A stretch of 64,000 bases of DNA from Eledone cirrhosa (taxonomy: Eukaryota). Shown here piece after piece: positions 796-64,000 of this stretch. How positions within the stretch are numbered: the first letter of the stretch is position 1; each line of letters opens with the position of its first letter. A program made the translations under genes and the position numbers. Location: contig OZ024746.1 of the NCBI GenBank assembly GCA_964016885.1, positions 2,108,001 to 2,172,000 of the forward strand. Direction: 5' to 3'. The notes beneath the pieces were generated by a model that did not search any database, was not told where the DNA came from, and worked only from the letters and a program-made list of their open reading frames with translations.

Positions 796-1689
796 GGTGG
801 TGGAGAGAAGAGAGATCTATTTGTTTAATGGTTTCGTACGTTACAATGTCGTGGCAAGGAGGAATAAAGCGTTATGCATAAATGTCTACAGTGAAAATAT
901 ATTGAAAAACAAAAAATCATATTTTTTTTCTAAGTTCAATTAAATGGAATAAAGGATATCTAAAGACCAAAATCTTCGTTACTCCAGAGTAAACCATGAT
1001 GGACTGAAAACCCAACGAAGCTAATAAAAATGTGAACTTTTAATAAAGGTTTTAAAATAAATATCTTCACTGCAGAAAATTAATTATTGGATAAAGCACC
1101 ATACTTTTTATTTATTAAATTTATTTTTTACATTAAACACCCTATAAACCAATATAATTGCGCGAAAGTAACCGGATGGCATTTGCCTTTCATCCTTACG
1201 AGGTCGATAAAATAAAGTACCAGTAATGTACTGAGTAATTGCTGGCCTTGTGCCAAAAGTAGAAACACTATCAGCAATGTTAAATCACATAAGGTTGAAA
1301 ATAGATTTGTTTGTGATCATATTCGAGGAAATCACGCCTATTAACGATCACTTACTTCAGTAAACCCTCCACGCAGTAACCAAGTATCAAAATAGGAAAA
1401 CATTGTAAATGGGGCACCAATCGACCAAATGCACCAACATCATTTAACGTCCTTTCTCCCTATCTGCCTGTCTCTATATATACACTATGTGTTTATATTT
1501 CTTAGTTTAATTCCAAACGCGCCAAGAAAATATTGCATGTAGGACTCGAAAGAGACATACCACTAAACAGAAGCTTTTTACTTTCATTTGTGGACCATTA
1601 AAAGTTGTAATGTTCTCATTTTCTATAATTAAATCGTATTATAGATGTATGTTATATACATATATAATGTGTACTATTGAGACGTTAGT

Positions 1690-1820
1690 TCTTGTCTCAT
1701 GACCCTGTAATAAACAGGCTAATCTCCAGAGTAACAAGATTCACTATTTAACCTTAATAAAATGAATATTAAAACTCCATTTCGGTATTGAGTACTCTTT
1801 TCTCTCAGCCATCAACCACA
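1690..1820 (+). mobile_element. Penelope-pLTR-like fragment with a decayed type I hammerhead (1690-1739)
   Basis: UCUUGU-CUcAUGA-c-CCUGU/ACAGG-c-uAAu-CUC ca GAG-UA-ACAAGA: stems intact, core mutated. Same family as 23186-23313; ends near a (TA)n run. Confidence 0.7.
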
Positions 1821-1845
1821 CACGGATGGATATATATATATATAT

Positions 1846-2027
1846 ATAGGAGAAAGTATGACCCCGACGGCAGAGCTCAAGCCGTTTCGACGGCTATTTC
1901 TGGACTAGTTCAGAAATAGCCGTCGAAACGGTCATACTTTCTCCTATTACCCACTCTACTACCCTAAGTATTGAGTACTCTGGTGCATTATGGACCATCT
2001 GGTTCCTTACCACAACTCCTTCGTTAT
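1846..2027. mobile_element. Palindromic Penelope-pLTR-like fragment; related copy at 17330-17400
   Basis: Inverted repeats 1846-1863/1930-1947 and 1882-1902/1911-1931. Carries the hammerhead 3' half GAAACGGUC. Flanked by (TA)n on both sides. Confidence 0.55.
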
Positions 2028-2275
2028 ATATATATATATATACAAGTGTAGTTTAAAAAGATATCTAATATTTAATTTACAATTCACAAAAAAACCCAAG
2101 GACTGAGGTGAAAATAAATTTTACATGTAGTTAAACTCTTTATCATCGATGATCAAACAAAATGAAATTGGTTTAAAGTGAGAAAATAAAACATCGATAC
2201 TTCTGGGTAATTTGTTGTCAATGAAGAAAGCAGTTACGTCCCTTGTCTACCTTAGGAACAAATATATATTGTAAG

Positions 2276-2413
2276 ACAACGGTATGGATGACCAAAGAGT
2301 AATAAGAGGAGAAATCGCATGAAATATATAAACACTTATATATATATTGTACACACACAACGGTATGGATGACTCAAGAGTAATACGATGAAAAATTGCA
2401 CGAAATATATAAA
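2276..2413. repeat. Imperfect ~57-bp direct repeat, two copies
   Basis: ACAACGGTATGGATGAC..AAGAGTAATA.GA.GA.AAAT.GCA.GAAATATATAAA at ~2276 and ~2357. Confidence 0.75.
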
Positions 2414-3376
2414 TAAATAGTCGCCTGTTTAGAATAAGAATACGATGAGTCTTTTTCTATGGAAGACGCCTCGATCCATAACATTTCTGATTATATCAGG
2501 GAAATCTTTTAGCGTCAACTAAATTACTACAGATTATTAAAAAAAAATTTACTATTTAAAATAAATATTTATTTTCAATATTTCCGATAATAAAGTTTTG
2601 AGATTAATGTGGATGGTCGGCTACGCAGTTGATTGACTGCGCTATCCTTCACCACAGCTGCCAACCACGCTAGATTTTTGAAATCCAATAACCTACACAA
2701 CAAATCCACATCGTTTGGATAAAAATACCACCGGAAGCTGATCAAAAGCACACAAGGGACATACTAAATATAATGTGCGAATTGTACGAATTTCTTTTGG
2801 TGGGGGCGCTAATGATCCCTCTCAAATGTTCACATTTTTCGTATACCCATTTTAAAACCGGATTTAACGCTAGTAACGAGAGTATATAATTAAAAGCATA
2901 GATATTACAAATCGAAACGAATAAGAACTACTAACACAGAGGTATAAAAGTGAATAATTTACTAGAGGGGGAAAGAGCTTCCATGTTAGAGAAGCTTAGT
3001 TCGTACCATGATACCAAGGAGCCAAGAAGACAAATTGGTCACTAAGTGAGGGATTTAATTTTCACTTTCACTGGAGCCAAGCAATGGAATTTAAAACTAT
3101 AGAAATCTAGACAAACATAAATATCTATAAAACGATTCTTCCTACTAAAAATAAACATAAATACCTACAATTCTAACTGAAAATATAATATATATTTAAC
3201 ATTTCACTTAATGTACAGAAAATATCTGAAAATTATACTTAAAATAGCGAGCAATCATAAATGATAAACAATTTAATAATACTTACATAAAAAAGTTGTT
3301 AACTATTTCATACTAAAATATCCAATAAAAATAACGACACACTTCACACAGAGCGTGAAATATATAAAAAGGATAC

Positions 3377-3646
3377 AGCAGTAACCCAAAAGTTGGGAAT
3401 TTTCTTTATAAGCTCATTTCTCCGATCGAAGTATGGTCTTCTTAATTTGTTAAATTTCTGTTCAACTTTCAGAATCTCTTCGCTCGCTTTCTCATTCAGG
3501 GCATCGATTTCGTTTTGACACGAATCGATGTCTTCCAAAGCCTTTTGGGTTTCACTATCGAAATCACGACTTTCTTCAGCTTCAGAGCTTGCTTCTGAAA
3601 CGGCTACTTTTTGTACTTTGCGTGGTGTTCCTGTGCCCGTTTCCAT
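3377..3646 (-). CDS. SET: First coding exon of SET / TAF-I (NAP-family histone chaperone, I2PP2A); gene continues beyond the left edge of the window
   Basis: Translation ...ETQKALEDIDSCQNEIDALNEKASEEILKVEQKFNKLRRPYFDRRNELIKKIPNFWVTA matches the SET N-terminal dimerisation helix. Phase-0 donor GCT|GTATCC at 3377/3376. Acceptor (T)n-ATTTGCCTAG|G gives an exon start at 3706, which includes 5'UTR. Confidence 0.93.
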
Positions 3647-4042
3647 CTTTGATTCTGATCCTTCGACGTTATTACCTTTCTACAGTGAAGATTTCGCGGT
3701 TAAAACCTAGGCAAATAAAAAAAAAATTGGCAACAATTGAGCAGGCGTGCTCAGTCTTTGTGTATGTGTATGTATGTATATATATGTCTATACATATACT
3801 TATTTGTGTATATCTTAGGTACAGATATACAAACACATGTATAAATATATATATATTATATACACACTTGCCTTTCGCTATGGGTTTGGATACAGAAAAA
3901 ATAGAAAGCAGTGGAATCTGCGATTGTTAAATTACTTTTGTCTTTTTCAGTAAATACAGTGAAGATGGGCTCAGTTGGTGAGTGTTGTAACAAATAAGAA
4001 CGTTTGCAAAAGTTTGCAAGGTACCTTTGCGCAAATACTCAC

Positions 4043-4198: not shown

Positions 4199-4835
4199 AT
4201 GGAGGAAGTTGAACCAGAAGAAGACAAACCAATACGTACTGCTGAAGCTAACACTTTCATAGCTTTAGATTTTACCTGTAAACAAATTTGCACCGGCGAG
4301 GAACTGCCTCTGGTCGGGCTTGATATTACAAAAAGTACTGAGAGCGAAACACAGGACGAAGTGTCGGTAGCAGGCGTAACTAAACGAGACCTTCAGAGCT
4401 ATCGCAATTTACCTGGTCTGCTGTCACCACATGCAGCAGCTCATGTTGTGAAGGACGAGAACGATAATACAACTACAGCAACGTCGTCAACAACATCAAC
4501 AGCTACTACTACGACACCATCAGACGCTAAAAGGCCTAAACTTTCCGCTTCATTACCATCGCCTGGCCATCAACAACTGCCCGATCCTTGCGCTAGTCCC
4601 GAGTCGGGAAAGAGAAAGAGGATCCAGCATGATTATCGTCGGCTGTCCAGTTCTGGATATATGGACGACTATGTTAGTGGTAAAGAGAGGCGTTTCTCTT
4701 CGACTAGTGACTCTGATGTAAGCTCTTCACCGGCCTCACCTAAATCTAAAACCAATTCATCAACGAAGGTCAAAATGATCAAGCAATCACCTAATTCTTC
4801 TGAAACGTCACTCAATGGATTACCTTCAAATAAAG
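4199..4835 (+). CDS. RSBN1: Probable first coding exon of the RSBN1/RSBN1L (KDM9)-like gene; S/T/P-rich disordered N-terminus with an NLS-like KRKR
   Basis: 212-codon open frame from AAGATGG. Donor AAG|GTAAGA at 4835/4836 is phase 1 and matches the phase-1 acceptor at 60425/60426 (G+AT = Asp). Assignment to RSBN1 rests on phase and orientation, not on sequence recognition. Confidence 0.75.
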
Positions 4836-4899
4836 GTAAGAGTAATATTTATCTCTAAAAAAAAATAAACAAAACAAAAACCAGTGGTAGTATAAGATT

Positions 4900-5940
4900 G
4901 TGTGTGTATAAATGTGTATATGTATATATAGATATTTATTATATAATATAAATATATATTATATGAAAAAAAAAATTATATATACTATATGTACTGTATG
5001 TGGGATTATATAAAATAGTTATATATATGTATATATTGTATATATATATGTATTATATGTTGGATTATATTATATTGTATAAGTATTATATATATTTATA
5101 TATACATATTGTATATGTGTGTGTATTGTATTTATTCATTAATATATATATATTAATATATACATATATATATATATGTAATATGTATATATATTATATA
5201 TATATATATATGTATATTATATGTATTGTAATTATTATGTAAATATATATATATATTATGTATATATTATATAATATATATGGATATTTTATATATATGT
5301 ATGTTTATATGTATATATTATATGTGTATGTATAATATGTGTATGTATAATATATGTGTATGTATAATATGTGTATGTATAATATATATGTATATATAAT
5401 ATGTATGTATATATAATATATATATATATGTATATATGTTATATATGATATATATAATATGTATATATAATATGTATATATGATATATTTATGTATATAT
5501 AATATGTATATATGATATATTTATGTATATATAATATATATATATGATATATTTATGTATATATAATATATATATATGATATATATATATAATATATATA
5601 TATATATCATATATATATACATATATCATATGTATATATAATATATATATATATGTATATATGATATATATATATATCATATATACATATATCATATGTA
5701 TATATAATATATATATATGTATATATGATATATATATCATATATATATATATCATATATATATATATCATATATACATATATATATATTATATATACATA
5801 TGATATATGTATATATGATATATATATATATCATATATACATATATATATATCATATATATATATATCATATATACATATATCATATATATATATATATA
5901 TCATATATACATATATCATATATACATATATCATATATAT

Positions 5941-8060: not shown

Positions 8061-8380
8061 GGAGGCACATGGCTTAGTGGTTAGAGCATTGGCCTTGCAA
8101 TCGAAAGGTTGTGAGTTCAATTCTCAGACCAGGTGATGTGTTGTTTCCTTGAGCAAGACACTTTATTTCACATTGCTCCAGTTTACTCAGCTGTAGAAAT
8201 GAGATGATAGGGGATGGGGTCCCTATCATTCCACTGTAAAGTGGTTGTGGAGGTCCCACGGCAACAAAGCACCCAGCACTCACTGTAAATGAAAAAGGGC
8301 ATCCAGCTGTAGAAATCAAGCCAGAATCAGTTCCCGTCCCATCCTTGCAAGCAGGGAAAAGCTGACGTAAAATGATGATG
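8061..8380 (+). mobile_element. tRNA-derived SINE with CORE-like middle and RTE-type (GAT)n tail
   Basis: Head GGAGGCACATGGCTTAGTGGTTAGAGCA (A box) and GAGTTCAATTC (B box), CCTTGAGCAAGACACTT CORE-like block, tail ...GACGTAAAATGATGATG. Four closely similar copies in the window. Confidence 0.88.
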
Positions 8381-8418
8381 ATATATATATATCTGCGTAT
8401 ATATACATATATATCTGC

Positions 8419-8458
<40 letters not shown>

Positions 8459-8478
8459 GCGGATATATATGTATATAT

Positions 8479-8512
<34 letters not shown>

Positions 8513-8554
8513 CAAAGTGTTAAAACGATCAAATTTTAGTTTAGAACATTTATT

Positions 8555-9267: not shown

Positions 9268-9603
9268 ATCATCATCATCATTTTACGTCCGCTTTTCCCT
9301 GCTTGCAAGGGTGGGACGGGAACTGATTCTGGCTTGATTTCTACAGCTGGATGCCCTTCCTAACACCAACCTCATTTACAGTGAGTGGTGGGTGCTTATT
9401 TGCCGTGGCACCTGCACGACCACTTTACAGTGGAATGATAGGGACCCCAGTCCCTATCATCTCATTTCTACAGCTGAGTGAACTGGAGCAATGTGAAATA
9501 AAGTGTCTTGCTCAAGGAAACAACACATCACCCGGTCTGAGAATTGAACTCACAACCTTTCGATTGCAAGGCCAATGCTCTAACCACTAAGCCATGTGCC
9601 TCC
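9268..9603 (-). mobile_element. tRNA-derived CORE-like SINE, same family as 8061, inverted
   Basis: Reverse complement of the 8061/13549 family, including the (ATC)n tail. Confidence 0.88.

Positions 9604-11403: not shown

Positions 11404-11433
<30 letters not shown>
9604..11433. repeat. (TA)n / GTATA microsatellite field
   Basis: About 1.8 kb of low-complexity TA. Confidence 0.97.
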
Positions 11434-11434
<1 letters not shown>

Positions 11435-12582
11435 GGATCAAGAGCTTCCTGTCAAACAGAACCCAACATGTTGTAGTTGAGGGAGTCAAATCAAGCCCAG
11501 CCAAAGTCAGTAGTGGGGTCCCACAAGGGACTGTGTTGGGCCCACTTCTCTTCATCATCTATATTAATGACATCACTGACATCATCAAACACAGCAACAT
11601 TAAAATTTTCGCTGATGATTCCAAGCTCCAAAATGTCATCACTGGCGTGGATGACCGGATAAGCCTTCAGTCAGACGTACTGGCTGTTACCCAATGGGCA
11701 GAAAAGAACAACATGTTATTGAACGAAGACAAATTGGAACTGATCCACTTTGGAAAAGAGGATGCTCTGAAACTCCTGTACTCCCTTCCCTCCGGGGAAA
11801 CTCTCGTGGCATCTAACAACATCAGAGACTTGGGAGTAACCGTGGACAGCAACATAAGCTGGACCACGCATATAAGCAGCAAAGTTGACATGGCCCGCCG
11901 AATGTGTTCCTGGATCCTCAGAACCTTCCAGTCGAGAGATTCCCGCACCATTATCCTTCTCTTCTCTACTTTTGCCCGACCACACCTTGAATACTGTTGT
12001 CCACTGTGGTCTCCCCACACGAAACAAAGTATCATGAAACTTGAAGCTCCTCAAAGGGCAATCACGAAAAAGATAGATGGCATGTCAGACCTTGACTACT
12101 GGGGTCGATTAGAAAACCTGAAACTTTACTCACTCCAACGTCGCCGTGAGCGTTATATTATCTGCATGATGTGGAAAATGTTGCATCATCACTGCCCAAA
12201 TAATGTTGGCATCGCCTTCAAGATACACCCAAGGCTTGGGCCCCGTGCTATCCGTCCCATTCAAAAATCTAAATCGCAACTCATAACAACAATACGGCAC
12301 AATTATTTCACCTCAATCGGCCCTGCTCTCTTCAACATCACACCAGGACACGTCAAAACAGAAACTGACCACACAAAATTCAAGAAGTCTTTGGACAAAT
12401 TCCTCCAAGTAATCCCGGACAAACCACCCACACCCGGATATGTCTCCGCAAACAGTAATTCTCTTCTCGAATGGGCCATGGTGCCCAAATCCTGAATTGA
12501 AAGACTTCGCCAGGTGGTGCTATTAAGTTAGACATGGCCTGGGCCAATACTGGCCAAAACATTTCAAAGTTATTCAAAGTTA
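11434..12582 (+). mobile_element. 5'-truncated CR1/L2-group LINE: C-terminal RT ORF2 fragment plus 3'UTR
   Basis: Uninterrupted frame [17 protein letters not shown]...[21 protein letters not shown]...IFADDSKL...[13 protein letters not shown]...[10 protein letters not shown], stop at 12495. Tail (TTCAAAGTTA)x2 runs into (TA)n. Confidence 0.92.
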
Positions 12583-12586
12583 TATG

Positions 12587-12621
<35 letters not shown>

Positions 12622-12626
12622 GTATG

Positions 12627-12679
<53 letters not shown>

Positions 12680-12750
12680 GTATATATGTATATGTATGTA
12701 TATATGTATATGTGTATATGTATGTATATACGTATATGTGTATATGTATG

Positions 12751-12781
<31 letters not shown>

Positions 12782-12949
12782 GTATATAGTATATATATAT
12801 ATGTATATATGTATATATATGTATATATGTATATATATATATATGTATATATGTATATATATGTATATATATATATATATGTATATATGTATATATATGT
12901 ATATATGTATATATATGTATATATGTATATATATATATATGTATATATG

Positions 12950-12981
<32 letters not shown>

Positions 12982-13036
12982 TATATATATATATATGTAT
13001 ATAATATATAAGAACAAAAGATGGTTAAAAGAGTTC

Positions 13037-13121
13037 CATGTATTTTATTATGCGCATTTCAAAAACAAATATCATCATGCAATAATATTTGTGTTTTCAT
13101 CAGATTAAACAGGAAGACATG
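13037..13121 (-). ncRNA. Type I hammerhead ribozyme with intact core (mirror copy)
   Basis: Reverse complement of 13232-13316, with a single A.A mismatch in stem I (UUUAAU). Confidence 0.82.
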
Positions 13122-13231
13122 ATATGAAGGTTAAAAAACACTTATGGATAGTGCAGTTTTAAATCAACATATGTTAATACGTGATATGTTGATTTAAAAC
13201 TGCACTAAAAAGTGTTTTTTAACCTTCATAT

Positions 13232-13316
13232 CATGTCTTCCTGTTTTATCTGATGAAAACACAAATATTATTGCATGATGATATTTGTTTTTGAAATGCG
13301 CATAATAAAATACATG
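13232..13316 (+). ncRNA. Type I hammerhead ribozyme with intact core
   Basis: CAUGU-cuuccug-UUUUAU | CUGAUGA (13250-13256) | long stem II CAAAUAUUAUU/GAUGAUAUUUG | GAAA (13293-13296) | palindromic stem III AUGCGCAU | AUA^ (cut after 13304) | AUAAAA-u-ACAUG. Confidence 0.88.
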
Positions 13317-13447
13317 GAACTCTTTTAACCATCTTTTGTTCTTATATATTATGTATACTCCAGTTCTACAAACTGTAGAGTGCTTCTTATCCGATATCTG
13401 CATTGCTTTATTGTACTACAATAAAACTCACCTCCTACATATATGTG

Positions 13448-13500
<53 letters not shown>

Positions 13501-13548
13501 GTATATATATATATATGTATATATATATATGTATACATATATGTATAT

Positions 13549-13884
13549 GGAGGCACATGGGTTAGTGGTTAGTGCATTGGCCTTGCAATCAAAAGGTTGT
13601 GAGTTCAATTCTCAGACCGGGTGATGTGTTGTTTCCTTGAGCAAGACACTTTATTTCAGATTGCTCCAGTTTACTCAGCTGTAGAAATGAGATGATAGGG
13701 ACCCCAGTCCCTATCATTCCACTGCAAAGTGGTCGTGGAGGTGCCACGGCAAAAGAGCACCCACCACTCACTGTAAATGAGGTTGGTGTTAGGAAGGGCA
13801 TCCAGCTGTAGAAATCAAGCCTGAATCAGTTCCCGTCCCACCCTTGCAAGCACTGAAAAGCGGAGGTAAAATGAAATGATGATG
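13549..13884 (+). mobile_element. tRNA-derived CORE-like SINE
   Basis: Same family as 8061; embedded in (TA)n. Confidence 0.88.
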
Positions 13885-23036: not shown

Positions 23037-23103
<67 letters not shown>

Positions 23104-23133
23104 GTATTCATTTTATTAAGGCTAAATAGTGAA

Positions 23134-23181
23134 TCTTATTACTCTGGAGTTTCGCCTGTTTATCACAGGTTCATCAGACAA
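23134..23181 (-). ncRNA. Type I hammerhead ribozyme with intact core
   Basis: UUGU-CUGAUGA-a-CCUGU(gauaa)ACAGG-c-GAAA-CUC(ca)GAG-UA^-AUAA. Confidence 0.8.
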
Positions 23182-23185
23182 CTGT

Positions 23186-23233
23186 TCGTGTCTGATGACC
23201 ATGATAAACAGGTGAAACTCCAGGATAACAAGA
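23186..23233 (+). ncRNA. Hammerhead motif, core intact but stems II and III damaged
   Basis: UCGUGU-CUGAUGA-ccaugauaaacaggu-GAAA-CUCCAGGA-UA-ACAAGA. Confidence 0.6.
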
Positions 23234-24749
23234 CTCACTATTTAGCCATAATAGAATGAATATTAAAACTCTATTTCAGTATTGAGTACTCTTTTCTCTC
23301 AGCCTTCAACCACATGTATTTGTGTGCTTTGAGTGAATGAAAAACAGCACTCAGACTCCTTTGAATATCATGCACTGTTTTAGGATCCCTTTTGTTCCTC
23401 ATAATATCAAGTATGTAAATCTTATTGTGCTCCTCAGCTACGAGGCAATAAACCTATACATTCACTCAACCTCCTATTAGTCTAGTCTATGTATTAATAC
23501 TACATTTCATCATAACACTCTACTATTTTAAAGAAAGGCAGACATGCTTACCAATATTATAATAGATATACAATAAGATGTTGATTTGGGCCCCAAAACA
23601 TTAAAGTTATATTGGAAATCTAAACAAAGCTATCTATATGACCCAACAAGGCCTAGATGTCATAAGGATTAGTTACATAATGGTTTCTGATTTAGGCACA
23701 AGGCCAGAAAATTTGAGGGAGGGGAAAGTCGATTAAATTGACTCCAGTGCCTTACTGGTGCTTTATTTATTGACGAGCCCCCCCCCCCCCCCCCCCCCGT
23801 AGGGATTAGTTACATAACACCAAATGCTTCATTACCACAACATTTCATGATTTCCATTATTAACAAAAAACCCACAACAAAATATTTCTCTTTCCTGAAA
23901 CAAAAGCCCTTTTACATAGTGAATCTGTCCCACCCCTCATCTAGGCAAGGAACATACTTTCCTGCTTGTTGAATGCTCACTGGTTCCCAACAGTTATGTT
24001 AAACCTCTGAAAATCACATCCTAAATAAGCTCGGCTTCTTGCAATTTACTCTCAAACTAGAGACACAAAAATGTTTCAGATGGCAAATGACAGCTCTCTC
24101 AAACACTTAGATATATTATATGGAATGTCTTCAGACAAGAAAGAGCAAACAAGAGGAATGGGAAGAACATTCCTTTTTAAATCTTTTGTCAGCAAAAATT
24201 TCTATGCAACAGTTTAGAATATAAAGAGCTGCAATTGAAAGACTTCTAAAATGTCTCAAAAACTCAAAGATTAAACAGATTTTTAAAGGATGTCAAGATG
24301 CACATCTTCCTAACGCCTCTGAACAACAATTTAGAAATAGCTATACTCAGAGTAGAGGAGCCTTCACTAACTCACTATGATAAAAAAGGTGATTGAGTAT
24401 GTAACAGTCAGTATTCAATATTACTCTGCTTAGCTTAACCATTAGTTACCACAAACTATGGAACATGTATATATAATTATATCTCTATGTACATATATAT
24501 ATATATATATATATATACACATCAACAGACAGGGTTAGTACTCAAGCAGAGCTATTGACATCTTAAATAGACTGGGGCCCAGCATCTTGATTACATATCC
24601 CATCATACACCTGAGTGTATTTTATCATGACATTAAGTACTAGAGAGGTTGTTATGCCTTTCATACAGCTGAAAAGTCCTCTCGGCCCTTTGTTTGACTG
24701 GATGCCTTTCCTACCATTAACTGCTTTACAGAGTACTGGGTGTGTTTAG

Positions 24750-29047: not shown

Positions 29048-31200
29048 CAGGGGTCACCAAACTTTTTTCACAGTGGGCCGGATAACTGAAAGAATGACGA
29101 GCGCGGGTTGCATAATCATTCTGTTCAATACTTGCAAGCCAGAACAAAAGCTCTGGGAAAAAAGACGAAACACTACGTTTAGCACATTCCATGTTAATCA
29201 TGGGTGAGTGGCGTGCAATGCACAAAAAACAAAGACGACCAACATATTTATTTACTAAAAAGTTACCAAAGAAGGCGACGTTAGCAAAAATATAGTTACA
29301 TCAGACCTAGTGTGCACATATCCGAATCTTACAAACTAAGCAGCAAAAAAGGTTAGTGAGATTTGTGAAACTGACGTTTGGCTTTCAAGATATCAATGTA
29401 TGGTTTGGAATTGCTGCATCCGATCAAGAGAATTGCTTTCAAATGTTCATGAGTCAATCTCGTTCGATGTGATGACTTCACATACTTCATTTTTGAAAAT
29501 GTTTGCTCACAGACATAAGTTGTTCCAAACAATGATGCCATACCAGCGGCAAATTTTTTTCAGAAGCGGTAAAATTCAACAAGTTTTTCTTCTCTGTGCT
29601 TCTCTTTCAACAAGTCATTTGCTTGCAAATCAATGAGCTCCAACTATAGTTCAACTGGCACATCATCAGGTTACAATCAAACGGATTCTGGAACAGAAGA
29701 ATGTCACTCTCAATTCTGTCGAGATCTGAAAATCTCTCCAAAAAATGCTTCTTCAAGTCACGAATAATCTTTTTAGGAAAATCGAGGTTGACATCTTCAG
29801 GAATTGTAGCGCAGTTGAAACAGTGAAAATGAGAGAAGTTTTCTCCTTCCAGTTGTGCTTCAAACAATGACAGCTTTCTCCGAAACCCTTTGATGATTCT
29901 GTAGAGATCACAGACAAGGTTATCCTTTCCCTGAAGTTTCAAGTTCAGTTCATTCATGTGGGATGTGATGTCGACCAAAAATGACAACTTTGACAGCCAG
30001 GTAGGATCTGACAGTTGTGGATCAGCTCTATCTTTTTCAGTGAGAAAAACATCTATTTCGTTTCGGAGCTTGTAAAAACGAAACGGCCGCAGCTGAGCCA
30101 CCTCAATTTCTGCAAGAAAAGCCTGGAACTGATGGTGATTGAGTGCATGTCCTCGAATGAAGTTCACAGCAGAAACGACTGGTTTCAGTACACAAGAAAT
30201 ATCCAAGTCTTTCCCACAGAGTGCTTGCTGATGTATGATGCAGTGTATGAACAGAGCGCTCGGAATTTGCGAATCTTCCAACTGAGTCCTGATCTGCCCG
30301 ACCAGACCCTTCCTCACTCCAGCCATGTTTTTTCCTCCATCAACTGTAACACCTTGAAGCTGATTCCACTGAAGGTTATAGTCTTGCAAAATTTTCTGCA
30401 CTTCCATGAAAATGTCTTTTCCAGTTGTTGTGCCATGCATGCAGCAAACGGATGCCAACTCTTCCGTTATCTGAAAGTCCAAATTGACACCACGAATGAA
30501 CACGAGAAGTTGTGACGTACTCGAGAGATCAGTAGACTCATCCAGCGCCAGAGAATACCACAAGTTCCTGGCTTTCTCGCGTATCTGTAGCACTATGTTC
30601 TCTCCAAGTTCTTCTGCTCTCCGCACAACTGAACTTGCCGAAAGGCTGATACTTCCAAACAAATCGGCTTTCTCTCTCAGGACACAAGTCATTTGCTGCT
30701 TCCATCATACACTCTTTGATGAAGTTGCCATCAGTAAACGGTTTTCCTCGCTCTGCCAACTTATGTACTATTTTGTAACTTGTACGAGTGACAGATTCAT
30801 TTTCAGCAAACTTTCTCGTGAAGAGATTTCTTTGAGTTTCTAAACCACGTTTTATGGACTCATATTTCTCAGAGCGTAACTTTCCAGAAAACTTTGAATA
30901 TGTTGATAGATGTTTTGTTTCATAGTGACGCCGAAGATTGTACTCTTTCAAAATGGCAACACTTTCGCTGCATACCACGCAACTAGCTTTCTGGTCCTTA
31001 GAAGTATTTTACTCCCCATTCTTCATTGAAAACGCGACACTCGGCGTCCACTTTTCTTTTCTTAGTAGCCATAATAAAGGGTGAAGAAAACGGGATCTGA
31101 AAATGAAAAAGACATTGAATTAGAAACATCTCGTGTTCCATACATTTTATCACGCAAATGCAAGCACCGTCGGCGGGCCGTAGTAGTTTGGTGACCCCTG
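29048..31200 (-). mobile_element. hAT DNA transposon, Charlie/Buster (SPIN/OC1-like) group, full length with a broken transposase
   Basis: Perfect 16-bp TIR CAGGGGTCACCAAACT; 8-bp TSD TTATAGCC/TTATATCC. Confidence 0.93.
29353..31072 (-). pseudogene. hAT transposase pseudogene (GTF2IRD2/Buster-like)
   Basis: MATKKRKVDAECRVFNEEW.., KEYNLRRHYETKH, YSLALDESTD, HCIIHQQALC, LQGK and FGTTYVCEQTFSKMK, split over at least four frames. Confidence 0.9.
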
Positions 31201-31339
31201 TTATATCCAGATCTGTGCAGAGCTTCATTGTAATATTGAGTACTCTGATTAAAGCCAACCTGGTTAGAGGAAAGTTTAGAGATGCTATTAGATACATTAT
31301 TGTCAAGTTATATTATTGTTAGATACATTATTGTACAAG

Positions 31340-50520: not shown

Positions 50521-50571
50521 AGATTTCTGATGATTTCTAAAGAATGAAACAGTTCTAGTCCTGTAGAATCT
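50521..50571 (+). ncRNA. Type I hammerhead ribozyme with intact core
   Basis: AGAUUU-CUGAUGA-uUUC(uaaa)GAAu-GAAA-CAG(uucuaguc)CUG-UA^-GAAUCU; all three stems can form in a monomer. Confidence 0.82.
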
Positions 50572-51994: not shown

Positions 51995-52115
51995 TCCCGG
52001 GTTCGATCGGGGGTAACCACAGTAAGTAAGGTACTCAATACAGAGAGTATAAATATTTAATATAGAAATGGCTTCTACAGGACTAGAACTGTTTTATTCG
52101 AAGGAAATCATCAGG

Positions 52116-60269: not shown

Positions 60270-60425
60270 GACATACTAAATAAACTACTGAATTAATATT
60301 CAGAACTGCTGACTCAGGATGAAACATAAGTTTTAAAAATAAAGTTTGGGGTGAAATTAATTTGTTAGATAATTGTTTTCTGTGTATTTTTGATGACTTA
60401 TTATTTGTTTGTTATTTTTTCACAG

Positions 60426-61851
60426 ATCTTCATGAATCACCAACCCAAGACGCTAACCCATGTTCACAAACACCCATAGAAAATCTCAAAAAGAAAGAAA
60501 AGACTAAAGTGATGAAGACTGAAACGAGTGGTAGTGGTGGTTCTCAAAAATCACATGGTATGTGTGTGAAAAAATCAAAGGCTGGTCATAGTGAAAGTAG
60601 TGTTTCTGGAAGTCAGGAAATATCGTCTTTGACATCTGGAGACAAAGATAAACGAAAACATCATCATCATCATTCTCATCATCATTCTCACCATCACCAT
60701 CATAATATACATCCTCATCATCACCACCACAAGTGTGAGCCTCAGTTTGAGAAATCCTCCAACTTCAAGCAACATATTCACACTTCTGAAAAAGAAAACA
60801 TCAAAAAGAAGGACACAACGGATGAATCAGCTTCAAAGCGAGTTAATGGGAATTCTTCATGTGTGGCTCATGTGAAACCAGCGCCAAAGAAAAGGATTGT
60901 TAGTAATTGTGGTGTCCAAGTAAATCTTCGACGGCGAACAGAGAACAAAGCTGTTCAAGTTTCTTCAAAACTTTCTGGTAGCCATCATGATAAAGATTCA
61001 TTACGGAGAGAACATTCTTCTTTACATGCTGACCGAAAAGCTGAAGTTGCCCAGAAACTTGAGTGTCACAGTCGCCGTTCTATGTCTAGTAAAGGGACAC
61101 AAACCAATAAAGAAACTAGACCTAAATCTACTATGCACAGCTTGAATGACCTAAAGATTTCTCTTTCTACTGACTTTGATCATACTATTAAGTCTCTGAA
61201 AACAGATCCTCCACCAGTTACTGGAGATAATGGTGGTCAGTCTACCGAAGTCTTAAAATATCGTGATTATATGCATTTTGAATATTACACTAATGGTGGG
61301 GCCATGGTATTGCATTCCTACCAAGAAGAGCTTGATAAGCTAACTGAGGAACAAATGCTTGAATTCACTAAAGAATATTTTCATGTTGTCTTTGATGAAG
61401 TATCAGAGGGGGTTTCTAACTGTGTCATGGGCATTGTACATAATGCAGCTGCATATATGCCGGACTTTTTGGAGTATTTTGCATCTGATTATTCTAACCT
61501 AACTGTGAAAACAGGTGTGTTAGGGAAATCCGATATCGAAACCAAATCTATGGCAGCTTATTGCGATATGGTATATAAAACATATGAAAATGGAACTGTA
61601 CGGACAGGGCCACTCCTTCAGCTCAGCCTTGTTGGCACAGTGCATGAAGAAGTTGGAGATTATTTCCCTGAATTCTTAGATATGCTGGAAGAAAACCCAT
61701 TTCTTCGAGTTACAATGCCATGGGGTGAATTAGCTTCAATAAAAATGAAAGATAGGAGAGAGAGTAATGATGGCCCAATTTTATGGTCACGTCCTGGAGA
61801 ACAGTTAATTCCTACAGCTGATTTGCCTAAATCTCCATACAAACGAAAAAG
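60426..61851 (+). CDS. RSBN1: Large exon of the RSBN1/RSBN1L (round spermatid basic protein 1, KDM9 family) gene
   Basis: Poly-His and basic region followed by the conserved RSBN1 block (NGGAMVLHSY...MGIVHNAAAYMPDFLEYF...GVLGKSDIET...GPLLQLSLVGTVHEEVGDYFPEFLDMLEENPFL...PWG...SNDGPILWSRPGEQLIPTADLPKSPYKRKR). Acceptor TTTTTTCACAG|AT; donor AG|GTAAGT at 61851/61852. Confidence 0.92.
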
Positions 61852-64000
61852 GTAAGTTCATTTTCAGTTTAGTGATTTCTACTTCAGAGATAAATGCCAT
61901 TAAGTCCTCCAAAATCTGATAGTGTCGGTTTATATATTTTTCTTTTACTAATTAAATATGCATTTAATTTTCAACTTGGTTTTTATAACTTTAATGTTTG
62001 AATTCTTAATACTGCTTTAAAATCTTTTTAGTTTTCACTAAGTTATTTTGTAAAACATATTTAATCTTCAGATTTATACTTTTATATATTGTTTGTACTT
62101 TGAAGAATATATTTTGTAAGTAGATAACAAAATATTTTCAAAAATATTGATGAGGAAAAATACTCTAATATCGGTGTTGTATATTATTTTATTTTTAATT
62201 TTATACATAGTTTCTTCAGTTTGTGTAAATTAGATAAAGTTTTAAGCTTAAGATATGCACTGAGTCTTGAATCTAAAAACTATAATTTAACAATAATCCA
62301 TTTATTTTAACTTTTAACACTCTGTAATGATTTAGCAAAACATCTTTAAAAAAAAACAGGTTTGTTAATTCAGATATTTATAGTCTCTTTACTAGTTAAC
62401 AGATTGTTATAGAAATTTACAGTAAATTAATATAATGCAATCATAAAGCTGTTGTGTACTTTCCAAGAATATAATACTAATTCAGTTTCATGCAGATATA
62501 GAATGTTAAAAGTTAAAATGGGATTGGGGCTTCGTTGATTTTCTTTCACCCGTCCCCTTCTTTATTCTTATCTGTTTTAAGACAGTGATGGTATAAATTC
62601 CACCTCACAACAGTCTAGCATCCAAAACTGAGAAAGAATTGTTATCAGTTGCACAGCATCTCAGCTAGTGACTATTTTATAGCAGTGTGGACTGAACATT
62701 TCAGATTAAAGTGTTTTTATGAAGAGGTCAGCAAATTGCTGGTGACATGACAAGAATTATTTGCTTTTTAGTTTTGTTAATTAGCAAATATAGTTTTGTT
62801 AGTTAGCAAATATCTTTCATATGCTGATGGCCTCTTGATGGTGATAACTATGTTGATGTTCATTGAGCCATAGAACAGCTCAATGTGTACATATCACATG
62901 TTGGCATGAAGACCAATGTAACCAAGACAAAGTATCTATCTTCTGGAAGAAGTCAATCAATTTAAATGTCTTAGCATCACCTTCATTGCCACAGGTTAAA
63001 ATAAAGATAGAAAGAAAAACATTTAGCCAAATATTAGATTTCTAAAAATGATCAAATTCATTCTAATAACTATAAACTCTTTATTCAAAACAGTTATAGT
63101 TGTCTTTGATGTATTAATTTTAGCAACAAGAAAACCCTTACTGAATTACATTTTTGTTAGTTTCAGTTCCTCATTTATACTTAAGATCATTTGTATTATA
63201 AATTTAACCCAATTAAAAACAAACAATAATAGGAAAACATTACCTATGCTCATTATATCATAAAATCTATTTAGAGTTTGATATCAATTGATTTATAAAT
63301 TTGTAACAGTTATTCAAAGAAATAAAACAGTAAGGATGTTTACTACTCACTCATATGCTGGTTTAGGTAATATCTTACAAGGTTTCTTGTGTTTTTATGT
63401 TAGAGACTCCAGTCCTATCATAAAAGGCATCATGCCACCCATAAAAGGCATCAAACCCATGACCCTGTGATCACCCTAACCACTACTCACAACCCTCCCA
63501 ATAGTCTAATGAAATATGTTAACTGGTTTTTAAAAGTGTATATATTAAATTTGGGGGATAATTTAGGATTATGTAAATAATCATCATTTTTACATTTGCT
63601 TTTCTGTGTATTGGTTGGCTGGGACCTTTTTAACACTGTCTCTCCCCTCATTACAGTCCTTCATCTTCCTTGTGAGATTAAACATCCTAACATTAGATCT
63701 ACCACTTCTTCAGTCTTTCACTTACATCATTTGATACTCTTTTGAGACTGTTAGTCATTATATTCATTACTTGCACAGTCTTCTCTCAGCACATTATAGC
63801 TGTTATCTTTAACCCTTTCATGACTGCATTTCTCATGAAATATACTCTACATTAATTAATGAAGAATTTTGACATATTGGTTGTGGATAGTGTTCTGGAT
63901 TTTAGGATTTTTCTCCCTTCCAAATGTTTCGCATGGTGTCAACTTTGTTGTTTCTCATCTTTTCACAGTTATATTTAGTAGAGTTGTTTTAATGTGTTGT

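Follow-up and report, generated by a model that had tools for sequence, protein, structure and literature searches.

The window analysed here is a 64,000-nucleotide stretch of the Eledone cirrhosa genome (GenBank contig OZ024746.1, positions 2,108,001 to 2,172,000 of the forward strand), and the positions below are counted from its first letter. By tblastn against the window, an octopus RSBN1-like protein aligns on the plus strand at 4199-4834 (amino acids 1-216) and at 60425-61852, with 89-91% identity to Octopus bimaculoides and 82-83% to Argonauta hians. Head to head with its first coding exon and about 0.5 kb away, an exon at 3347-3679 on the minus strand shows a weak NAP (SET-like) match (E 2.8e-5, below the cut-off). 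The first coding intron of the RSBN1-like gene contains a palindromic element, and the features at the locus are as follows:

4835-60424, plus strand: first coding intron of the RSBN1-like gene (tblastn; 55.6 kb), containing the element.
12585-13000, no strand: the portion of the (TA)n/(TATG)n target microsatellite that lies left of the element, from the sequence.
13001-13172, minus strand: tail-less arm, a Penelope-like element end (pLTR), with its 5′ end at 13172 and its 3′ end blending into (TA)n at about 12998-13001.
13035-13114, minus strand: type I hammerhead motif with its core at 13103-13097 and a cut predicted after 13049; stem I holds a private A·A mismatch, 13106/13046.
13173-13183, no strand: head-to-head junction of 11 nt, private to this insertion; a 31-mer spanning it occurs once in the genome.
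13184-13352, plus strand: tail-bearing arm (pLTR), with its 5′ end at the fixed boundary of the family, 13184, a likely transcription start.
13239-13318, plus strand: type I hammerhead motif; stem I 13242-13249/13305-13312 with extension 13239-13241/13316-13318, core 13250-13256, stem II 13257-13292, GAA 13293-13295, stem III 13296-13303.
13353-13438, plus strand: one-sided tail of 83-86 nt, its start blurred by TA.
13439-13549, no strand: the portion of the same (TA)n/(TATG)n target microsatellite that lies right of the element, from the sequence.

The near-perfect palindrome described in the earlier note is real, as its outer arms, 13001-13144 and 13209-13352, are paired at 142 of 144 positions, with mismatches at 13106/13247 and 13144/13209, and past a 3-nt indel the inner arms pair up to 13172/13184, with the 11-nt junction between them. 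Both substitutions are A/T transversions and not the A-to-G marks of editing. The tail-bearing arm carries a private 3-nt deletion near 13208, and the base adjoining it at the junction is G where long copies have C; both end points of the tail-less arm recur in other copies. The limits formerly given to the element, 13001 to 13352, missed the tail, by which one side runs on to 13438. Folding of the tail, in which a hairpin was sought, gave a z of only −1.8, and the output of a general repeat search of the window was swamped by microsatellites. Directly after the right microsatellite lies a SINE-like dispersed repeat (13550-13870), with similar frames at 8077-8535 and 9327-9587.

The palindrome is almost certainly an insertion of a high-copy Penelope-like element (PLE), a retrotransposon. 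Scoring of 40 among 170 candidate dispersed copies gave 94-98% agreement with its right arm, and a 32-mer over the hammerhead core and stem II has 10,553 exact matches in the genome and none for the reversed control, with a further 1,217 matches for a sister subfamily; the locus is one of thousands of PLE ends, a point missing from the earlier note. Among 20 loci fetched from the list of 32-mer matches, 17 of them chosen for wide match spacing, an ORF frame of at least 150 aa adjoins the arm in nine, reaching up to 800 aa from the first Met. Two of the fetched loci (L041 and L042) are partial tandems that form pLTRs, in which the tail continues into the 5′ leader of the ORF, and in L041 same-sense hammerheads stand 3.94 kb apart.

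The ORF has 18 homologues at 29-38% identity. A structure model built from 11 sequences (mean pLDDT 71.7, pTM 0.49) found telomerase RTs as its top three PDB matches (E 3e-8 to 3e-7, TMq about 0.26); Pfam returned no RT or GIY-YIG domain for the ORF or 10 homologues, and a PDB sequence search with the ORF gave nothing useful. The putative endonuclease, on which Pfam is silent, corresponds to a confidently modelled domain at residues 657-750, and its IY..YFG, R, H, E, N pattern, with motifs read by eye, is conserved in the homologue alignment. Of the motifs given for the Hydra clade, the ORF carries DKT, a CxCx5C linker, and CxxC and CxH beside the conserved E and N, with no CCHH seen by eye, and at the RWK position it has RW followed by T or I, RWK itself being present in 5 of 10 aligned homologues. 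In the L031 copy (1392-3791), residues from about 561 to 656, between the RT and the zinc-finger linker, form a low-confidence Asn/Thr/Pro-rich stretch that is about 70 aa longer than in the homologues and recalls the Asn-rich inserts of Adineta vaga Penelopes (PMC3846280). The ORF resembles, by eye, the Hydra proteins in the supplement of Craig et al. 2021 (PMC8557442), and its repeat unit measures 3.9 kb against the "generally <3 kb" tendency given there for the Hydra clade; the family is probably of the Hydra clade and distinct from Hydra-1_Obim. It is also young, the C-terminal 146 aa of the ORF being 97-100% identical and free of stops in all 150 scored matches (the best 150 of 61,274), with frames of at least 800 aa in 17 of these 150, a set biased to the best.

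The plus hammerhead motif is as the earlier note described it, with a CUGAUGA/GAAA core, an AUA cleavage site, a long stem II and a bulged, extended stem I. Stem I has 8 bp followed by a 3-nt bulge and a 3-bp extension, stem II has 15 pairs and one 1x1 mismatch, stem III is palindromic, and the predicted cut falls after 13304. An intact hammerhead had been claimed for each strand; in the plus copy the core boxes, the NUH site and stems I-III are all present, but the minus copy carries at 13106 a change, found in 1 of 122 arms, that makes an A·A mismatch of the third pair of stem I and lowers its predicted pairing from 0.61 to 0.01. A strict hammerhead descriptor matched once in the window and never in 100 shuffled windows, and a loose one matched four times against a shuffled mean of 0.07. 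An Rfam search of the window returned no hammerhead at gathering score or among the 55 matches up to E=10, and near the palindrome only sub-threshold hairpin look-alikes. Stem II opens with an A-U pair in place of the usual G-C (G10.1-C11.1); among 13 aligned motifs this position is A-U in 8 and G-U in 4, with G-C readable in L022, and it is also variable in the published Hydra table (PMC8557442).

These 13 motifs have the same architecture and come from related families in the fetched loci. Over 221 cells they are paired at 96.4%, with 25 double changes, values that none of 500 shuffles reached, and five pairs carry a double change against 3.6 in shuffles, a number reached by 100 of 500; since the motifs share ancestry and are not independent, the shuffle figures are not probabilities, and the misaligned but retained L022 depresses the pair counts. 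The covariation shows that the source elements keep the hammerhead fold under selection. In 13 of 13 motifs, as read by eye (window 13260/13289 and loci L007, L008, L010, L018, L019, L022, L055, L070, L085 and L096), stem II has a 1x1 mismatch in its fourth position, after three pairs; the 5′ side of this mismatch is nearly always C, and it is a candidate site of tertiary contact. The 15-bp stem II would place loop 2 far from the stem I bulge, which the earlier note considered suited to such contacts. Subfamily variants common in the stems (window 13243, 13267 and 13283) are A/G changes with pairing kept as G·U, which would fit structural selection or fixed A-to-I editing alike.

Folding, proposed earlier as a check, predicts no hammerhead within the full hairpin, where at about −269 kcal/mol the predicted probability of stems I-III falls below 1e-18 in a transcript of either strand; transcription from either direction meets the antisense arm first. 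The suggestion that the self-complementary stem III serves dimeric cleavage holds for the kind of motif, as type I motifs of this kind are reported to need same-sense dimers (PMC4209133, PMC6765202), but not for the locus, because the two copies lie on opposite strands and therefore no transcript carries two sense copies. Pairing two sense copies via the palindromic stem III gives a predicted dimer of −34.1 kcal/mol, against −40.5 for the best cofold and 2 × −14.2 for the monomers, and a same-sense dimer is possible by these energies, which are not decisive. Given the opposite-strand copies and the predicted burial in the hairpin, the hammerheads of the palindrome are likely inert, and a reading of the palindrome as a special ribozyme device finds no support. 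If it acts at all, the hammerhead would act in tandem copies holding two same-sense motifs, and such pairs, 3.3-3.9 kb apart, were found in tandem copies.

The layout of the palindrome recurs in the genome, and adjacent inverted copies are also present among the fetched long loci. Among 32 short loci, taken in chromosome order from the first 44 Mb of one contig with the long-type L106 left out, 29 are head-to-head pairs with exactly one tail and three are solo or damaged. Both arms are complete in 18 of the 29, as in the present palindrome; the tail arm is shortened in nine and the tail-less arm in two. Scaled from 44 Mb to 3.0 Gb, the 18 complete palindromes extrapolate to about 1,200 genome-wide. 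Where the tail arm is the shortened one (nine loci), each arm has sequence that the other lacks, and therefore neither is a plain copy of the other; in L136, L143 and L158 the tail arm shares nothing with the tail-less arm. The 3′ ends of 198 arms fall at the tail-less end in 93 and at the tail end in 90, and nearly all run into (TA)n.

The 5′ end is fixed as well. Exact-match counts for patterns extended 5′-ward by successive steps of 6 nt are 14,400, 12,013, 4,980 and 4,619 (the last pattern being one base shorter at its 3′ end), and the drop at 13184 keeps 41% of the matches against 83% and 93% on the flanking steps. Therefore, about half of the arms stop at the base equivalent to 13184, and both window arms do. 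The ribozyme cut is crossed with no such boundary (from 15,474 to 14,008 matches, 91%), which indicates that inserted copies derive from RNA uncut by the hammerhead, a reading that concerns only the templates used for insertion. Long copies have pyrimidines and then C before the boundary A, a context that fits a transcription initiator, and the boundary is likely a (capped) transcription start.

The base before the 5′ end is G in 17 of 35 junction arms (16 of 26 loci; of 49 arms, 13 overlapping and one long-type were set aside), with 9% G at −2 to −8. A copied cap would give such a G, to which microhomology can add, and the excess is confounded, as a single junction serves both arms of a locus and G also precedes 5 of 16 ATA sites in the antisense unit. 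A GTG before the 5′ end, present in many of the first 30 loci, proved to be a selection effect of the query, occurring in only 54 of 12,013 arms, and these 30 loci were excluded from the class count and the G count.

The two arms of one insertion resemble each other far more than arms at large. At 10 diagnostic sites, left from 15 polymorphic ones after removal of three close to the junction and two in the TA end, which alignments overrun, 48 of 61 arm pairs of one insertion agree throughout, with a mean of 0.38 differences within an insertion against 4.30 for random pairs. Substitutions likewise number 1.8 between arms of one insertion and 7.0 between loci (17 loci, 136 pairs), and shared subfamily variants hold also where the arms lie 2-5 kb apart. 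These low within-insertion differences show that the arms of one insertion come from one source. The near-identity of the window arms had been taken as a sign of recent origin or homogenisation; recent origin stands, but homogenisation is unneeded because subfamily variants are generally common to both arms of an insertion. Two or more differences occur in 9 of 61 pairs (L008, L009, L146, L148 and five more), some of which could be insertions from two different RNAs or products of gene conversion. One further long inverted pair (L037, 508-3548) is tail-less on both arms and flanked left and right by identical sequence; it is either a larger inverted duplication or an assembly fold-back.

Based on these findings, we propose that the locus is very probably a short PLE insertion with Hydra-clade motifs and two head-to-head, hammerhead-bearing ends, likely primed on two strands. 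First, the endonuclease would cut both strands of the (TA)n target. One target 3′ end would then prime at the end of the tail, 13438, and the other about 83 nt upstream, near 13355, and both cDNAs would copy the same sense RNA to its 5′ end, 13184. Finally, the two cDNAs would be joined head to head through microhomology or with a few extra bases. Two cDNAs primed on one sense RNA give the exact geometry that is found, with the 3′ ends outward and a single tail, and we lean slightly towards this route for the palindrome. The idea resembles the twin priming of LINE-1. A PLE protein cuts and extends both strands in vitro, its reverse transcription begins at two internal positions that mark the limits of the tail, and hammerhead cleavage is dispensable for its insertion, as reported for PAc (PMC11167929). 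We give an even chance to the proposal that the palindromes record how inverted ends are made, namely that both cut strands prime on one capped sense RNA uncut by the hammerhead. In a literature search of limited coverage, none of the titles and abstracts listed described PLE palindromes as primed from both strands or as having a capped 5′ end at one base.

The same element could also have gained its second arm by self-priming, in which the first cDNA or an antisense RNA folds back, with the tail trimmed on one side. This is a possible route, to which we assign a distinctly lower probability. It would account for the overlapping 4-nt palindrome at the junction of 13 of 49 arms, for a fold-back-junction 31-mer, 3 nt past the left arm, that reaches depths of 4,200-4,900 in three read runs, and for the near-identity of the arms of one insertion, and junction palindromes have been read as antisense-template self-priming in published work (PMC3846280). 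However, the fold-back of one cDNA cannot yield the 9 of 32 loci in which 5′ sequence is missing from the tail arm only; an antisense template covers those nine but not the two reverse cases, and it would need antisense RNA whose 3′ end always falls on the same base. More than one priming route may also be at work.

Alternatively, the short palindromes could be a self-propagating non-autonomous element, SINE-like or retrozyme-like, with its own masters and the family RT acting in trans. The start of about half of all arms at one base and the great number of short copies would fit such an element. Metazoan non-LTR retrozymes are, like the present insertion, non-coding, PLE-derived and equipped with a type I hammerhead (bioRxiv 10.64898/2026.07.22.740005). 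We nevertheless consider it improbable. Junctions vary by copy and that of the present palindrome is unique, which means that the palindrome is remade at each insertion; the window arm is 1-3 bases in 146 off the arms of long copies (L046, L032, L035 and L042), and upstream sequence is absent from the short copies. Moreover, the retrozymes are same-sense tandem arrays, whereas the present insertion is an inverted pair with one motif per strand (bioRxiv 10.64898/2026.07.22.740005).

A ribozyme or dsRNA switch co-opted by the host to act on the RSBN1 pre-mRNA, through cleavage, A-to-I editing or siRNA, is very improbable. The element does lie within intron 1 of the RSBN1-like gene and, as the earlier note stated, in the sense of its pre-mRNA, since plus-strand exons flank it, and a palindrome always has one sense copy. 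Within the pre-mRNA its two arms would fold into about 170 bp of hairpin, on which ADAR or Dicer would be likely to act. Against co-option, however, this is a young copy of a family with more than 10,000 arms, both arms carry private damage, the hammerhead is predicted to be masked, and a similar pair of another family lies 10 kb away.

A fold-back chimera of the assembly is slightly less probable again. The private junction is spanned by none of the listed contigs of three read runs, and as these contigs break in the repeat, this is evidence neither way. Two substitutions and a 3-nt indel separate the arms, 11 extra bases stand at the junction, only one arm has a tail, and the layout recurs in 29 of 32 sampled loci, all of which speaks against a chimera; contigs of the three runs, which may be from the assembly's own sample, also contain joints, at depths of 17-550, between the arm 5′ end and various places in the opposite arm (15 of 105 rows). 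A DNA transposon of MITE or foldback type, whose long terminal inverted repeats would hold a hammerhead by chance, would match the long inverted repeat and the TA-rich target, but its probability is negligible given the unequal ends with a one-sided tail, the variable centre, the arms adjoining an RT ORF, and a hammerhead that covaries and exceeds shuffles.

Inverted 5′-truncated copies, one-sided tails, (TA)n targets and pLTR hammerheads have already been described for PLEs (PMC8557442, PMC3846280). With the Hydra-clade elements of Craig et al. the present family shares an ORF with DKT, CxCx5C, CxxC and CxH and a C-terminal endonuclease (putative here, assigned by motifs), (TA)n targets, a canonical type I hammerhead that lies near the 3′ end and has a palindromic stem III, and an inverted 5′-truncated copy with a one-sided tail; in Penelope-13_HM the inverted copy likewise places the same hammerhead on both strands (PMC8557442). 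The family differs from Hydra-1_Obim in its N-terminus and hammerhead, compared by eye, and from the clade as described there in its stem II (15 bp against about 3-7 bp in the listed Hydra motifs), its tail (83-86 nt against 30-40 nt in published PLEs) and its 3.9-kb unit with a 1-kb 3′ UTR, and it is absent from the Hydra entries consulted in the supplement table of that paper (PMC8557442).

The minimal hammerheads of metazoan PLEs resemble the present one in being type I motifs in the pLTR with a long helix II and a small palindromic helix III, whereas an 8-bp stem I, an A-U first pair of stem II and the lack of an extra base after position 9 set ours apart; low monomer activity is reported for the minimal motifs, and in Schistosoma mansoni dual hammerheads lie on opposite strands 100-700 bp apart (PMC4209133). 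The Penelope elements of Adineta vaga (PMC3846280) and Drosophila virilis (PMC2377424) also have head-to-head inverted pLTRs with junction palindromes, an optional tail on one pLTR, a promoter and initiator in the pLTR, and asparagine-rich inserts between RT and endonuclease. They differ in their low copy number and in the antisense-template self-priming proposed for them, and the portions of these accounts drawn on here do not quantify a fixed 5′ boundary. PAc, a Poseidon element of Anolis carolinensis, shares two internal RT starts that bound the tail (putative in our family), AT-rich targets, and insertion that does not depend on hammerhead cleavage, with no PAc reads ending at the cut, but it belongs to another clade and its tail lies inside the ORF, whereas ours lies 86 nt upstream of the start codon; the parts of that report used here do not address inverted products (PMC11167929).

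The window locus itself matters little, being one of very many insertions of PLE ends in which twin hammerheads on opposite strands are a published by-product. The origin of inverted repeats and of the one-sided tail has, however, been named as unresolved (Craig et al. 2021, PMC8557442), and the family supplies clean counts that bear on this origin: about half of all arms begin at the same base, the ribozyme cut shows no boundary, and there are arm pairs in which neither arm contains the other. If true, two-strand priming would replace the idea of antisense self-priming for inverted PLE ends and would tie the in vitro result of two starts and two strands to the inverted-end puzzle, and a young family with more than 10,000 arms and many open ORFs would serve as a test system. 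In this group of animals, where RNA editing is known to be extensive, intronic copies would be long dsRNA substrates.

The same intron holds other mobile sequences. A LINE-type RT fragment, recognised by motif, lies at about 11430-12490 on the plus strand, and at 29610-31312 on the minus strand are the broken remains of a transposase-like sequence that weakly matches DUF4371. At 23100-23260, beside a (TA)n tract and 10 kb from the palindrome, a second head-to-head hammerhead pair of another family has clearly diverged arms, with cores at 23177 on the minus strand and 23192 on the plus strand. Other families are also represented by type I hammerhead-like motifs at 50527 (plus), 52114 (minus) and 26958 (minus), the GAAA box being altered at 52114.
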